DNA of 20,174 bases from a virus. Its lineage: Duplodnaviria; Heunggongvirae; Uroviricota; Caudoviricetes. Shown here piece after piece: positions 3,555 through 7,424 of this stretch. The stretch lies in IMG/VR virus record IMGVR_UViG_2802429251_000001; one strand, written 5' to 3'. The notes beneath the pieces were generated by a model, which was not told the origin of the DNA, ran no database searches, and worked only from the letters and a program-made list of their open reading frames with translations. A program made the position numbers and the translations under genes. Each line of letters starts with the position of its first letter. Positions within the stretch are counted from its first letter, which is position 1.

Positions 3555-5647
3555 CCTCCGGAAGTCAGCCAGGGGTTAACATCGTCAGTTACTGTTTTCT
3601 TCCGTTTTTGTTTTTTAACAGGCGTGGATACCGGTTCCGGTGAGGATGACGGTTCGGTACTGTCCTGGACACACTCCAGCCAGGTTTCCCGGCTCGCCCA
3701 CTCCGGTGCATCCGGCCAGCGGATCTTTTCGTATCCATGCAGAATGACCAGAGCCTCGGCATACACCATCAGGTCAAAAGCTTCGTTGGCACCGCGACCC
3801 GGCTTACTCCATTTCCCGTCACTGCTCCGCTCTTCATACGTCAGTTCGTCGTAAAACCAGCTCCCCAGCCAGTCAGGGAAATGCACATAGCCGGGACCTG
3901 GCGAGTCACGCCATAACGCGTTATTCACCCGGTCTTTCAGTGCATCCGTCTGAAGAAGCCAGAGCGGCACATCACCTGCGGCCTGCGCCCGTCGGCCCGT
4001 TCGTCCGGTGTTATCAGGGAATGTACGGGTGATCAGTTTTGCGCGCCGGATGCTGTCGCCCTTAAACAGGTAAATACGTTTACCAAGGCCATCACGACGG
4101 CAACGACGCCAGAATTTATAGGCATTATCAGTGACCCCGTCTTCACCGCCGGAGTCCACCGCCATTGCCATCAGTCGCATTTGTTGAGAAGGATCGGAGG
4201 CTAGCGGCCAGCTTTTATGAAAAACATCCGTCAGCAGGACATCCCAGTCTTCCGGATAGCTGGCCGGATCAATTCGCTGGCTCTCCCCGTCGCTGTCACC
4301 GCGTAATGACTGCGTGATGTTGTAACGATCAATAATCCAGCGTTCGCCACGGCTGCCATAGCCCGTTACCTGAACCACAAAACGGCGATGACGTCCCGCC
4401 TGCACATCCACTGTCGCCACAAGGAAATTAACGCCATCCGGCACACTGCGGGAAGGAACTGGCTCTGCCCGCTGCTCAAGCAGTTCACTTTTTCGTTGCT
4501 CCATGCTGGCGCGGGGAAGATAAGGTAATCCCCAGTCGGTATTGATAACCGTCTTGAGTGTTTCTTCACTTCCGGTTGTCTCGTATTCCTGTTCTGCAGT
4601 AAGCAGTTTGTAAACGAGTTGCGAGAGTGTCTGGTAAGCAGCTGCCGGACCCTCCATCCAGAATGACGCAATACGTGAGCGTCGGGGATCACCATAACGA
4701 CTGCCATCCGCATTGATGGATTCACCATCCCGCAACCAGACCCCACGTCCGTTCAGCTCACGTTTGTGTTCAGGCATAATCCGTCCTGAACAGGAAGGAC
4801 ACTGAATATAAGCCGCCTCACTTGCCAGCACGGGATCGGCAATATCACGGAAACCAGCAACCACATCGCCGCAGGGCTGAAAATACTCACCACAGTGTGG
4901 ACAGGGCCAGTACCAGCGACGGCGATCACCACGGTTATAGAGCGACAGGATCCCCGTGGTTGGTGGAGCCTCATGCGGTGAAGTCCGTCGCCATTTCACA
5001 TCCTTCACATCCCTGCCGGGGGAACTCTCCACCAACGTCATACCGCTGGACATAAATGTGGTGGTACGTTTTGAGGCAAGAGAGAAGGCATCCCCCTCGC
5101 CATCAATATCTTCCGGAAAACGGTCATAATCCGTCAGCGCGACGCATTTATAATCTGATGAGGACATGATATTGACTGACGGCCAGCCGATTTTCAGGTA
5201 GTTGCCAGCAAGGAATGTTCTGTCATAAACGTTGTTGTCATTTTTGTTCGGACTCAGGCGACTGACCACTTCCGGGCTGACGCGAAACGTTCTGGCGAGT
5301 CGTTTTTTGGAGTGTTCGCGGGCTTTTTCCTCCGTCATCTGAATGATCAGCATATCAGCAGGATCGCAAATCACGTTGTAAATCACCCAGCCGTCAATCA
5401 GGCCGATAGTCTTGCCGGTTCGTGCCGGGCCAACAAATATCACTGCGTCGTATTCACGCGAGGCCAGGCAGTTCATCGGCTCAATAACATACGGTGCCAC
5501 CAGCGGATCCCACGGGACTGAGTTCCCGGCCCCCATGGGCACCCGCATATACTGAGCAACGGCATCAGCAACCCGCATTCGTCTCGGTGCGCGAAGGATA
5601 TAACCTGAATCGGTTCGTGCTGCCTTTGCGGTTTCCTGATTCAGCAT
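3545..5647 (-). CDS. Terminase large subunit (GpA family)
   Basis: 700 aa ORF with N-terminal Walker A (VIFVGPARTGKT), Cys cluster (CPHCGEYF...CPSC) and strong RBS (AGGAGGAG) before the ATG. Start overlaps the stop of the upstream small-subunit gene by 1 nt (TAATG). Confidence 0.85.
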   Translation of the reverse strand: MLNQETAKAARTDSGYILRAPRRMRVADAVAQYMRVPMGAGNSVPWDPLVAPYVIEPMNCLASREYDAVIFVGPARTGKTIGLIDGWVIYNVICDPADMLIIQMTEEKAREHSKKRLARTFRVSPEVVSRLSPNKNDNNVYDRTFLAGNYLKIGWPSVNIMSSSDYKCVALTDYDRFPEDIDGEGDAFSLASKRTTTFMSSGMTLVESSPGRDVKDVKWRRTSPHEAPPTTGILSLYNRGDRRRWYWPCPHCGEYFQPCGDVVAGFRDIADPVLASEAAYIQCPSCSGRIMPEHKRELNGRGVWLRDGESINADGSRYGDPRRSRIASFWMEGPAAAYQTLSQLVYKLLTAEQEYETTGSEETLKTVINTDWGLPYLPRASMEQRKSELLEQRAEPVPSRSVPDGVNFLVATVDVQAGRHRRFVVQVTGYGSRGERWIIDRYNITQSLRGDSDGESQRIDPASYPEDWDVLLTDVFHKSWPLASDPSQQMRLMAMAVDSGGEDGVTDNAYKFWRRCRRDGLGKRIYLFKGDSIRRAKLITRTFPDNTGRTGRRAQAAGDVPLWLLQTDALKDRVNNALWRDSPGPGYVHFPDWLGSWFYDELTYEERSSDGKWSKPGRGANEAFDLMVYAEALVILHGYEKIRWPDAPEWASRETWLECVQDSTEPSSSPEPVSTPVKKQKRKKTVTDDVNPWLTSGGWL

Positions 5648-6141
5648 TACTCCTCCTGCTGTAATTCCTCCTCATCATCCGCACCTGCTTCAGTCACCCG
5701 CAGGGCTATCTGATCGCGCAGATCATCAATAATGGACTGAACACGGCTCACAGCGGCAGGCTGCAGACCGCAGTCACGTTCAAGAATATCCGGTAATGTC
5801 TCCAGCACCTGCACGACCGCTTTTGCCCAGATGGCAAACTCCCGTCTGACATCACTGGCCGGAATGAGTTGTGCCGTTTCCTGTTCGAACTTAAGACGCT
5901 CACGTTCAGACTGATACCAGGCTTTGCGCTCATGCGCGTCCATTTCGCCTTCTGCAACCGGCGGTGGTAATGCCAGAAATGCCGACACAATATCAACCAC
6001 CCGATAAAGCTTGAGGTTGCTTTCATGCCCCCCTGCAACGGGTAGATTTTGCAGCCTTGCCGCAGCAGTCTGGCGATGTACACCTGACAGTGCCGCCAGT
6101 TGACTGATATTCAGCGTCAGATTTTTTAACTCTCGATCCAT
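5647..6141 (-). CDS. Terminase small subunit (putative)
   Basis: 164 aa ORF immediately upstream of and overlapping the large terminase. N-terminal HTH-like segment (NISQLAALSGVHRQTAAARL), acidic C-terminus. Lies about 180 bp downstream of the cos-like sequence. Not similar to lambda Nu1 as far as I can recall. Confidence 0.6.
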   Translation of the reverse strand: MDRELKNLTLNISQLAALSGVHRQTAAARLQNLPVAGGHESNLKLYRVVDIVSAFLALPPPVAEGEMDAHERKAWYQSERERLKFEQETAQLIPASDVRREFAIWAKAVVQVLETLPDILERDCGLQPAAVSRVQSIIDDLRDQIALRVTEAGADDEEELQQEE

Positions 6142-6294
6142 ACCCGCTCCAGAATGTTTTAAACATGCATCTTGCGAACAACTTTAGGCAAACGGTGTTA
6201 GTGGTGAACAAAAAACAATCAAAATCGACACCATAAAAATAAAATCACCGTAATATCAATACATTACAGTAGTGGTGATGACGAATGAAATTTC

Positions 6295-6345
6295 AAAAAC
6301 TAGCCTTTTTCCGCGCCGCTCCCGCCCCGTGGCAGGCCACCCCAC
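6295..6345. other. Putative cos site (cosN-like)
   Basis: Minus-strand sequence ACGGGGCGGGAGCGGCGCGGAAAAAGGCTAGTTTTTGAAATTTC resembles my recollection of lambda cos (ACGGGGCGGCGACCTCGCGGGTTTTCGCTATTTATGAAAATTTTCC). It sits about 180 bp upstream of the small terminase gene, as cosN does for Nu1. GTGGTGA-containing repeats at 6204-6283 could be small-terminase binding sites. Exact cut sites not determinable by eye. Confidence 0.4.
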
Positions 6346-6721
6346 CGGGAGGACCCGTCAGCCTGACAGCTCTGACGAACGTCTGATACAACGCCTTGCA
6401 TGAATGGCATCGGGATAATCCAGAAAGGCATAGCATCGTGCCCACAAGAATCTGTGTAAGTGTCCTGTTTCTTCCCCCCCCGCACAGGACTGGCGAGCAT
6501 GAGGGACAAACCCGCGAACCATAAACGCGGTAAAAACCCGGTGTGCATCGTTTTTGATTATTCCCGCACACTCGCGCAGAAGGAGTTCCCCGTCGGGCTA
6601 CGGTCTCTGTTAATACGGGAATACGGCGACGATACAGCGCATGATGTGTCAGGCTTGAATACCTTTATCCGTTAAAAGGGATATCAGTTAAGCTATCCCG
6701 TGTAGGGTATAAGCCATTATC

Positions 6722-6750
6722 AAAGCCACTCTGTAGGGAGTGGCTTTTGT
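6722..6750 (+). terminator. Rho-independent terminator (plus strand)
   Basis: Perfect 10 bp inverted repeat AAAGCCACTC / GAGTGGCTTT with 6 nt loop, followed by TTTTG. Confidence 0.5.
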
Positions 6751-6757
6751 AATGGCA

Positions 6758-6782
6758 ATAAAAAGCCCCGCGAATGCGAGGC
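6758..6782 (-). terminator. Rho-independent terminator (minus strand), downstream of Rz
   Basis: Minus-strand RNA GCCUCGC-AUUC-GCGGGGC (7 bp stem with one G-U pair) followed by UUUUUAUU. Convergent with the plus-strand terminator at 6722-6750. Confidence 0.45.
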
Positions 6783-6956
6783 TAAATTCTGGTATTTGTA
6801 ATGACTGGCTCTTATCTCAACGCAGCCCCTTACCGCGCGCAAGATGCTCAATATCAAGCATCAGCAATGAGATGTTTAATCTGGATTCACTCCAGAAGTG
6901 ATCACCACCCTGTCTACAGAGCCAGATGTGAAGGATGATAAGTAAAATTATCGCTA

Positions 6957-7424
6957 TCATCGAAGGCATTGCGTCCTGATGTATTCCTGAAGCGTTCTCA
7001 GTGCTGTTTGGTCGCTGATGATTCCGTCCCGGATACCGAGAACGTTTCGTCCAGCAACTGGAGAGAGTTCGACGGTGGCATCATTGCCCATGCCGGAGGC
7101 GCTGGAGGTTTCGGCTGAGGATGGCACAGGGCATTTTCCTTTGACGAACACCCGACCACCATTATCAAGCTTGCGCCGAAGAGCATCATTTTCAGCTTTC
7201 GCATCAGCTAACTCCTTCGTGTATTTAGCATCGAGTGCATCAGCAGAACGCTGGCGCTGCTGCATGTCAGTAATGGTGGCGGTCGCCTGCTTCAGCTCAC
7301 TGACTTTTTTATCTCGCTGTTCTTTGTAGGCGATGGCGTTATCACGGTAATGATTGACCGCCCACGACAGGCAGACGATGATGCAGATAACCAGAGCGGA
7401 GATAATCGCGGTTACTCTGCTCAT
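6957..7424 (-). CDS. Rz: Rz i-spanin
   Basis: Translation [30 protein letters not shown]... closely matches my recollection of lambda Rz. ATG at 7424 overlaps the endolysin stop (ATGA); the track start at 7436 is a GTG extension. Confidence 0.9.
6998..7204 (-). CDS. Rz1: Rz1 o-spanin lipoprotein, embedded in the +1 frame of Rz
   Basis: [21 protein letters not shown]...PKPPAPPAW: lipobox (VVGC) and proline-rich segment, closely resembling lambda Rz1 (MLKLKMML...). Entirely inside Rz in another frame. Confidence 0.85.

Follow-up and report, generated by a model that had tools for sequence, protein, structure and literature searches.

RNA polymerase that has been modified by the Q protein passes the terminators that follow the lysis genes in phage lambda, and hairpins processed by RNase III are found in polycistronic phage mRNAs, such as the intergenic R sites of T7 and the N-leader and sib sites of lambda. 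The bor morons of lambdoid phages are located between Rz and cos, where a gene for a Bor/Iss lipoprotein is placed on the strand opposite to the late operon and has a promoter of its own. Here, we analysed a stretch of 20,174 nucleotides (IMG/VR record IMGVR_UViG_2802429251_000001), hereafter called the window, which represents a lambda-like phage or prophage, and studied the gap between cos and Rz (positions 6346-6956), an interval that is 99% identical to the corresponding region in mEp460 and Ayreon. We suggest, with a probability of roughly 0.45, that the interval is a lambdoid bor slot without cargo, located inside a hairpin-rich, non-coding part of the late-operon mRNA between the lysis cassette and the cos/terminase region. 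While the bor slot is known biology, the interval also contains a conserved core with RNA-type covariation that is present in lambda itself, and this is the part that merits experiments.

The core is non-coding and about 180 nt long (6462-6641). A block of 108 nt within it (6534-6641) is 82% identical to positions 46868-46974 of lambda, which fall between p78 and bor in a gap without annotation; this is the part confirmed by blastn, and by extrapolation the lambda core covers approximately 46868-47035. The core is placed directly upstream of bor in lambda, HK630, phage 21, Min27 and the DLP12 prophage of K-12, where it lies between ybcV and borD, and the plus strand of the window corresponds to the bor strand. 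In the initial annotation, which was made from the sequence of the window alone, the interval was proposed to hold the position of bor in lambda. This position is right, because the core sits just upstream of bor in lambda, HK630, phage 21 and Min27 and the plus strand is the bor strand, and the placement between Rz and cos agrees with it. The locus thereby shares with the lambda bor locus its map position, the 82% identical block by bor and a site that takes up varied cargo in relatives. It differs in that the slot holds only hairpins: homologs of bor, p78, p79 and ylcI were not found by tblastn searches of the whole window, in which lambda Bor gave a best E-value of 5.4, and there is no Bor/Iss lipoprotein on the strand opposite to the late operon. 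Nor was a promoter of the slot's own found, since a scan for sigma-70 or promoter-like sites on the plus strand of 6111-7354 gave none, as in the initial annotation, and the promoter hexamers of HK630 are not conserved here.

Relatives carry a variety of other genes in the same interval, including Rha, KilA-N, GIY-YIG, DUF551, YlcI-like and bor genes, and the flanks of the core are mosaic, with at least five different sequences following it and more than ten preceding it among the matches listed (122 loci). The core precedes four unrelated packaging modules, abuts the stop codon of Rz in Sakai Sp10, adjoins Rha genes in P13374 and ES18, and is located 100-150 bp from a lambda-type cos in locus L145. 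Whatever its flanks, it is common to lambda, 21, 434, the Stx phages, the mEp460-like phages and Salmonella phage ES18. Matches to positions 6346-6960 were found in 4097 of 5426 complete E. coli genomes, at a median of two places per genome and mostly to the core, and most of the partial matches carry no annotated feature. The comparison of the interval across relatives bears out the earlier proposal of a variable cargo site, and the site reads as a mosaic junction and cargo slot that is empty in this phage.

Variants of the core were collected from two pattern scans of IMG/VR and from reference phages. Each search pattern fixed a part of the core, and the counts from the two scans refer to the matches listed. 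The resulting alignment, A4, contains 76 distinct variants of 6525-6645 in minus-strand orientation; the sequences are recombining relatives, and the cell counts are not independent of each other. The predicted helices of the core are as follows.

6462-6490, minus strand: hairpin 1, with a 7-bp stem (GTCCTGT/ACAGGAC) and a 15-nt loop
6512-6530, minus strand: hairpin 2 (CCGCG/CGCGG), the weakest helix, with a sequence that differs between phage types
6544-6636, minus strand: rod-like hairpin of 93 nt, with about 29 bp that are divided over four stems and interrupted by internal loops
6636-6629 with 6551-6544, minus strand: stem P1 of the rod-like hairpin
6623-6613 with 6569-6559, plus 6610-6609 with 6571-6570, minus strand: stem P2
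6602-6598 with 6579-6575, minus strand: stem P3
6597-6595 with 6591-6589, minus strand: apical CCC/GGG stem with a variable loop

The 29 pairs of the rod-like hairpin are formed in 96.0% of the cells in the 76 listed variants, as compared to 31-62% if the partners are slid by one to three columns. The number of further pair types is 20, versus 16.9 ± 1.0 in shuffled alignments, and none of 500 shuffles reached 20. One of the P2 pairs is U-A in 44, U.G in 29 and C-G in three of the listed variants, and another is C-G (53), U.G (18), G-C (3) or U-A (1). In hairpin 1, the 22 variants contain 133 Watson-Crick, 13 G.U, four A.C and four other pairs on the minus strand. The fifth pair of its stem is U-A in nine variants and G-C in eight, and three pairs show compensatory changes in ES18. 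Its loop is conserved. It contains GAAGAA, as read on the minus strand, together with a C-run at 6474-6481 that differs in length and composition between relatives, with eight C in the window and a range from CCACCCCC to ten C. A separate fold of eight phages (the window, lambda, Min27, ES18, P13374, Sp10, 21 and JLK-2012) recovers P1, P2, P3 and hairpin 1. Hairpin 2 is seen in single-sequence folds of both strands and is absent from the consensus structure of the eight sequences, and other small hairpins can be drawn by eye at its site. With compensatory and wobble changes on the transcribed strand, the core behaves as a cis-acting structured RNA, apart from an exception in ES18 that is described below, and its placement in this class is moderately supported by these comparisons.

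A G.U pair on one strand corresponds to an A.C mismatch on the other, and on this logic the pairs can be assigned to a strand. If the first 22 pairs of the rod-like hairpin are considered, 95.1% of the cells are paired on the minus strand versus 85.8% on the plus strand. The distinct non-Watson-Crick states of the first 22 core pairs on the minus strand are 13 G.U versus four A.C, which is the same ratio as in hairpin 1, and transitions in the unpaired columns of the core show a slight bias in the same direction (15 versus 12). The consensus folding energy given by RNAalifold for the 81 listed variants is -17.8 kcal/mol on the minus strand versus -2.8 kcal/mol on the plus strand. The polarity of the G.U pairs, the RNAalifold energies and a late-strand terminator annotated in the Ayreon record all point to the late-operon RNA as the strand that folds. 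The minus-strand reading is favored because the compensatory and G.U changes that preserve the helices of the core suit an RNA of this strand.

Some observations weigh against a folded late-operon RNA at this site, and they are given here together with the alternatives. The folding energy of the core as a single sequence is ordinary (z-score of -1.4 on the minus strand), four pairs of the rod-like hairpin are changed on both sides in the 76 listed variants but this count is not significant, being reached by 27 of 500 shuffles, and Min27 has a G.G at one of the P2 pairs. The modest z-score would fit with a core that has no function of its own and is a shared stretch at a module junction, kept alike by homologous recombination among the lambdoid phages of E. 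coli, with helices that are incidental. This explanation also fits with the mosaic flanks on both sides and with the identity levels of 85-100% among most variants, which are usual for exchanged lambdoid modules. We regard it as distinctly unlikely, since it accounts poorly for the high fraction of paired cells, the double changes and the many G.U pairs of one polarity. Furthermore, ES18 has three altered pairs in the stem of hairpin 1 but a conserved loop, a deletion in P13374 has removed the apical part of the rod-like hairpin and left P1 and P2, and the block persists beside the four unrelated packaging modules.

Other observations against a role in the late mRNA concern the plus strand. 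About 600 conjugative plasmids of the ColV type, which have no late operon, keep the central (P1-P2) part of the core at a distance of 172 nt upstream of iss. The HK630 record contains a promoter, TGGACA-15-TACAAT, within the lambda-type core, and such a plausible bor promoter leaves room for a role on the plus strand. P2 of ES18 has two C.A mismatches on the minus strand that correspond to U.G pairs on the plus strand and thus fit the latter better. Together with the position directly upstream of bor in lambda, HK630, phage 21, Min27 and DLP12, these findings would be accounted for if the core were a control region of bor or iss, such as a promoter, an operator or a 5' leader on the plus strand, which was left behind as a relic when bor was lost or replaced. 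Transcripts begun there would then end at 6713-6756 and give a short, non-coding plus-strand RNA. However, the sequences that correspond to the two hexamers are CGGTCT...TACGGC in the window and CGGTCA...TACGGC in the 21 type, so that both have been lost while the block is still conserved. Many prophages carry the core without any bor, as in Sakai Sp10 with its core next to Rz, no promoter-like site was detected on the plus strand of 6111-7354, and the G.U patterns favor the minus strand. A control region for bor or iss is therefore considered unlikely. One of the plasmids, pAPEC-O2-211A-ColV, contains a segment (L315, 2001-2096) that matches window positions 6542-6636 at 86.5% identity and is placed beside a remnant of Rz1 and an IS2 element.

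Another explanation is that the core works at the DNA level, such as by binding a protein or as an accessory site for packaging near cos. The orientation of the core is fixed relative to the packaging genes, and it is located 100-150 bp from cosQ in the window and in L145. However, the distance to cos is about 1.5 kb in lambda, the core is found beside unrelated terminases, including those of 933W- and ES18-type phages, and variation of the G.U type is meaningless for duplex DNA. A DNA site is the least likely of the explanations and, in our view, highly improbable.

Under the preferred reading, in which the core is part of the late-operon mRNA, the rod-like hairpin of 93 nt would act in cis on this mRNA. 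The likeliest role would be that of a processing site or a barrier to decay, similar to a substrate of RNase III, which parts the lysis mRNA from the mRNA for packaging and head proteins. This role is of low certainty and is guessed from the shape of the hairpin alone, which also counts against the reading. Like the RNase III hairpins of T7 and lambda, the structure is irregular, with two stems of 8-13 bp and an internal loop, and is placed between gene blocks of a long operon. It differs in that the likeness is one of shape only, with no relation in sequence, and in that the hairpin is longer and has a large apical domain. More broadly, we put forward as a tentative possibility that the core is a previously undescribed cis-regulatory RNA at the boundary between lysis and packaging, which may control the processing, stability, translation or elongation of the 25-kb late mRNA. 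No described element between bor and p78 was found in a literature search, and no Rfam family reached its gathering score anywhere in the window, the core included. The core is unannotated nearly everywhere, although most prophages of E. coli have it and it is present in lambda, 21, 434, the Stx phages and many cryptic prophages, and it is absent from Rfam. If it acts in the processing or expression of the late mRNA, it would add a new control point to the most thoroughly studied of phage operons and could be tested directly in lambda.

The region between the core and Rz contains three further inverted repeats.

6713-6731 with 6738-6756, minus strand favored: hairpin I1 with 19-nt arms, preceded by an A-run and followed by a U-run on both strands
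6783-6754, minus strand: intrinsic terminator t1, with an 8-bp G+C-rich stem (6783-6764), a 4-nt loop and a UUUUAUUG tail
6665-6712, mixed strand signal: imperfect inverted repeat I2, or two small hairpins, with 19-nt arms that are 74% complementary

Two terminators facing each other had been proposed here in the initial annotation. The one on the minus strand corresponds to t1, and both its stem and its tail were recovered. It has the G+C-rich stem-loop and the U-run that define Rho-independent terminators. The hairpin on the plus strand (6722-6750) exists as well and represents the inner part of the longer repeat I1. The segment 6708-6790 folds at -40.9 kcal/mol on the minus strand and -40.8 kcal/mol on the plus strand, as compared to an average of about -17.4 kcal/mol in shuffles, with z-scores of -8.4 and -8.0, respectively. 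The pair of hairpins formed by I1 and t1 is far beyond chance, because the z-score is about -8 and none of 200 shuffles folds as well. A simple terminator scan by itself showed no enrichment, with two terminators found versus 2.5 expected.

I1 resembles a terminator only through its inner 10-bp stem, and the U-run is interrupted on either strand, being UUUGAUAAU on the late strand. It could, as judged from its sequence, terminate transcription in either direction. A second stem type, GCCCA/TGGGC, is found in JLK-2012 and E2348/69. The single changes in I1, as read by eye from the variant list, include about eight that are compatible with G.U pairs on the minus strand versus one on the plus strand. 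Ayreon is the phage in which 6711-6756 is marked as a late-strand terminator, and terminator annotations for I1/I2 are also present in epsilon34. I2 is part of a module (6664-6757) that occurs after Rz in P22-like phages without the core as well, namely Sf6, HK620, epsilon34 and CUS-3. The locus is thus similar to the terminators, including bidirectional ones, that follow the lysis genes in lambdoid and P22-like phages: t1 combines a G+C-rich stem with a U-run, the 10-bp stem of I1 is flanked by an A-run and a U-run, and the I1/I2 module follows Rz in the four P22-like phages. It differs in the interrupted U-run of I1, and termination and read-through are here predictions from the sequence.

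On the late strand, the order from 5' to 3' is Rz, a coupled open reading frame (ORF) of 50 amino acids (aa), the intrinsic terminator (6783-6754), the near-symmetric hairpin (6756-6713), the weaker repeat (6712-6665), the conserved core of about 180 nt (6641-6462), cosQ and cosN. The terminator-type hairpins t1 and I1 would halt RNA polymerase that is not modified by Q, keeping the structural genes silent in the lysogen, and the Q-modified polymerase would read through both of them. Such a Q-dependent choice between stop and read-through at t1 and I1 is suggested by analogy with lambda.

The initial annotation had argued that a terminator on the plus strand implies a transcription unit on that strand, opposite to the late operon. 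This argument fails because the hairpin at 6713-6756 is almost symmetric, with a U-run that pairs with the upstream A-run, and it could serve either strand. The candidate gene of this unit was the following.

6460/6499-6675, plus strand: proposed ORF of 71 aa, or 58 aa from the ATG at 6499, judged to be spurious

As a reading frame it exists, but it is not conserved among relatives. The frame is open in just 12 of 22 distinct full-length variants and broken in the other 10. Single-base indels that break it are found in JLK-2012 and K-12 DLP12. The variable columns number 21, 19 and 17 at the first, second and third codon positions, with no excess at the third position. The translation matched no Pfam or PHROG family, as no ORF of the interval had a match in Pfam, and is unrelated to YlcI/YnfO (DUF3950), small proteins whose genes take a comparable position in K-12; a tblastn search with ylcI was empty too. 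These comparisons led us to judge the ORF spurious. With no promoter, no bor homolog, no conserved ORF and hairpin substitutions that favor a minus-strand RNA, we find no support for a plus-strand transcription unit in the window, and neither a plus-strand ORF nor a small RNA (sRNA) would be needed to explain anything that was observed. The bor-like gene was mostly a false lead, in that the slot is empty and the ORF spurious.

The related explanation that the interval is a bor-like moron expressed in the lysogen, producing an sRNA or the 58-71-aa protein (6460/6499-6675) from the plus strand and ending at the terminator 6722-6750, is accordingly very unlikely. The hairpin followed by UUUUGU can terminate transcription on the plus strand, the interval occupies the place of bor, and Hfq-bound RNAs are encoded opposite to the late genes in the same interval of the Sakai prophages. 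These RNAs, EcOnc10, EcOnc11 and EcOnc12, were identified as very abundant Hfq-CRAC peaks (Tree et al. 2014). If the coordinates are used uncorrected, the peak falls in the core on the plus strand. The coordinates were therefore calibrated on the Rfam match to AgvB, from which an offset of about +140 nt is inferred, and the calibrated peak is placed at an (AAU)3 motif and a terminator. Both belong to the 3' end of ECs_1967, which is ylcI-like and missing from the window. The EcOnc RNAs were for this reason rejected as RNAs of the core. EcOnc10/11/12 look like the 3' untranslated region of ECs_1967, a ylcI-like gene of the RHH type located beside the core (L251, approximately 6444-6514, minus strand, in Sp10; also in Sp9 and Sp12). 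The broken frame, the lack of third-position excess and of a protein family, the empty promoter scan, the absence of an Rfam sRNA family and the substitutions in the hairpin, which favor the other strand, argue against such a moron as well.

Hfq-binding prophage sRNAs of pathogenic E. coli (AgvB, AsxR, EcOnc, PasA-D) are similar in that they are encoded in lambdoid prophages, often opposite to the late genes, and end in terminators. The genes of the AgvB/AsxR type differ from the locus studied here in being located between Q and the holin gene, downstream of PR'. Anti-sRNAs of this type were rejected for the interval on account of this location and because Rfam detected none in the window. AgvB, AsxR, STnc100, Esr41, STnc560 and the other prophage sRNAs in Rfam all remained below the gathering threshold in the window, while AgvB and STnc100 were detected in Sakai Sp10, which served as a positive control. 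PasB, the other Pas sRNAs of EPEC and E2348C_1409.1408.IGR were dismissed based on their published coordinates, which lie between the tail genes I and J, as for PasB, or in the Q-holin region, as for E2348C_1409.1408.IGR. The best of the chance-level Rfam matches was to STnc560 (RF01407), an Hfq-binding RNA of Salmonella. It covers 6694-6873 on the minus strand, with both terminator hairpins, and resembles this RNA in having a long second hairpin after a terminator hairpin, but with 21.9 bits versus a gathering score of 55 the segment is not a member of the family.

The statement in the initial annotation that there is no convincing protein gene between cos and Rz is incorrect, as it overlooked a conserved ORF on the minus strand.

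6969-6817, minus strand: ORF of 50 aa, with an ATG that overlaps the end of Rz, beginning 13 nt before the Rz stop codon, and a hydrophobic N-terminal helix

The ORF matches phrog_11822 over its full length (E-value 3.9e-38) and is open in 12 of 13 variants. Its 17 variable columns are distributed as 10, 5 and 2 over the third, first and second codon positions. It is listed as a hypothetical protein in the records of mEp460, Ayreon and 569R4, and is common to the P22-like phages as well. The terminator t1 is located 34 nt past its stop codon. The ORF is probably the final gene of the lysis cassette.

The surrounding genes and the left border of the interval are arranged as follows.

9158-8535, minus strand: Q, late operon
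8099-7896, minus strand: S, late operon
7924-7421, minus strand: R, late operon
7436-6957, minus strand: Rz, late operon
6356-6350, minus strand: cosQ-like GGGTCCT
6316-6356, minus strand: cos, the left border of the interval
6327-6316, minus strand: cohesive-end-like 12-mer GGGCGGGAGCGG
6141-5647, minus strand: Nu1-like small terminase gene, packaging
5647-3545, minus strand: large terminase gene, packaging

The cos-like sequence proposed earlier was confirmed at 6316-6356 by alignments with the right end of lambda and with the lambda-type cos in L145. Read on the minus strand, the segment 6296-6420 matches the final 34 bases of lambda and then runs into a left end of the lambda type, as seen in L145. 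The names of the cos motifs (cohesive end, cosQ) are those that we take to apply from the cos of lambda. The end of the mEp460 record (window position 6167) was rejected as a candidate for cos, since the record begins at an arbitrary point, about 25 nt ahead of Nu1, and the real cos is at 6316-6356. Two ORFs on the minus strand, at 6300-6548 and 6293-6571, are annotated as gp59 in mEp460 and as a putative late gene regulator in Ayreon, respectively, and run through the core and cosN (6316-6327). They were discarded as genes of the interval, since they cross cosN and are conserved solely within this phage type, and are likely miscalls, despite the existence of a PHROG family (17397) for them. 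The core explains several such doubtful hypothetical proteins in phage records, with calls that cross the block and even cos.

Two further candidates on the late strand were rejected. A mini-ORF of 10 codons (MRCIVAVFPY) has CTG or GTG in place of its start codon in the 21 and lambda types, and an attenuator, in which a GUGUGC/GCACAC hairpin followed by U5 competes with P1/P2, is broken in the lambda and Stx types. A late-strand ORF that starts at ATGGTGGAAGAAAC within the loop of hairpin 1 (MVEETG...) was observed in phage 21, JLK-2012 and Sakai Sp10 (L011, approximately 1245, minus strand; L004, 2997, minus strand; L251, approximately 6412, plus strand). It is 25-69 aa long and not conserved, and hairpin 1 could mask its start codon.

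A scan of genome contigs with a 15-base pattern gave nearly only chance matches among the 120 matches listed, and the seven that contain the element mostly appear to represent contamination with lambda. The long core pattern was observed in assemblies of Pseudomonas sp. 30_B, a Chromatiales metagenome-assembled genome (MAG), Cohnella rhizosphaerae and a Pseudomonadales MAG (L029, L035, L086 and L087). The core in these non-E. coli assemblies is most likely derived from contaminating DNA of lambda or of E. coli prophages, and L087, which was checked, is of the lambda type. One IMG/VR contig (L257) contains two copies of the core (5053-5172 and 6003-6122), located about 950 bp apart.

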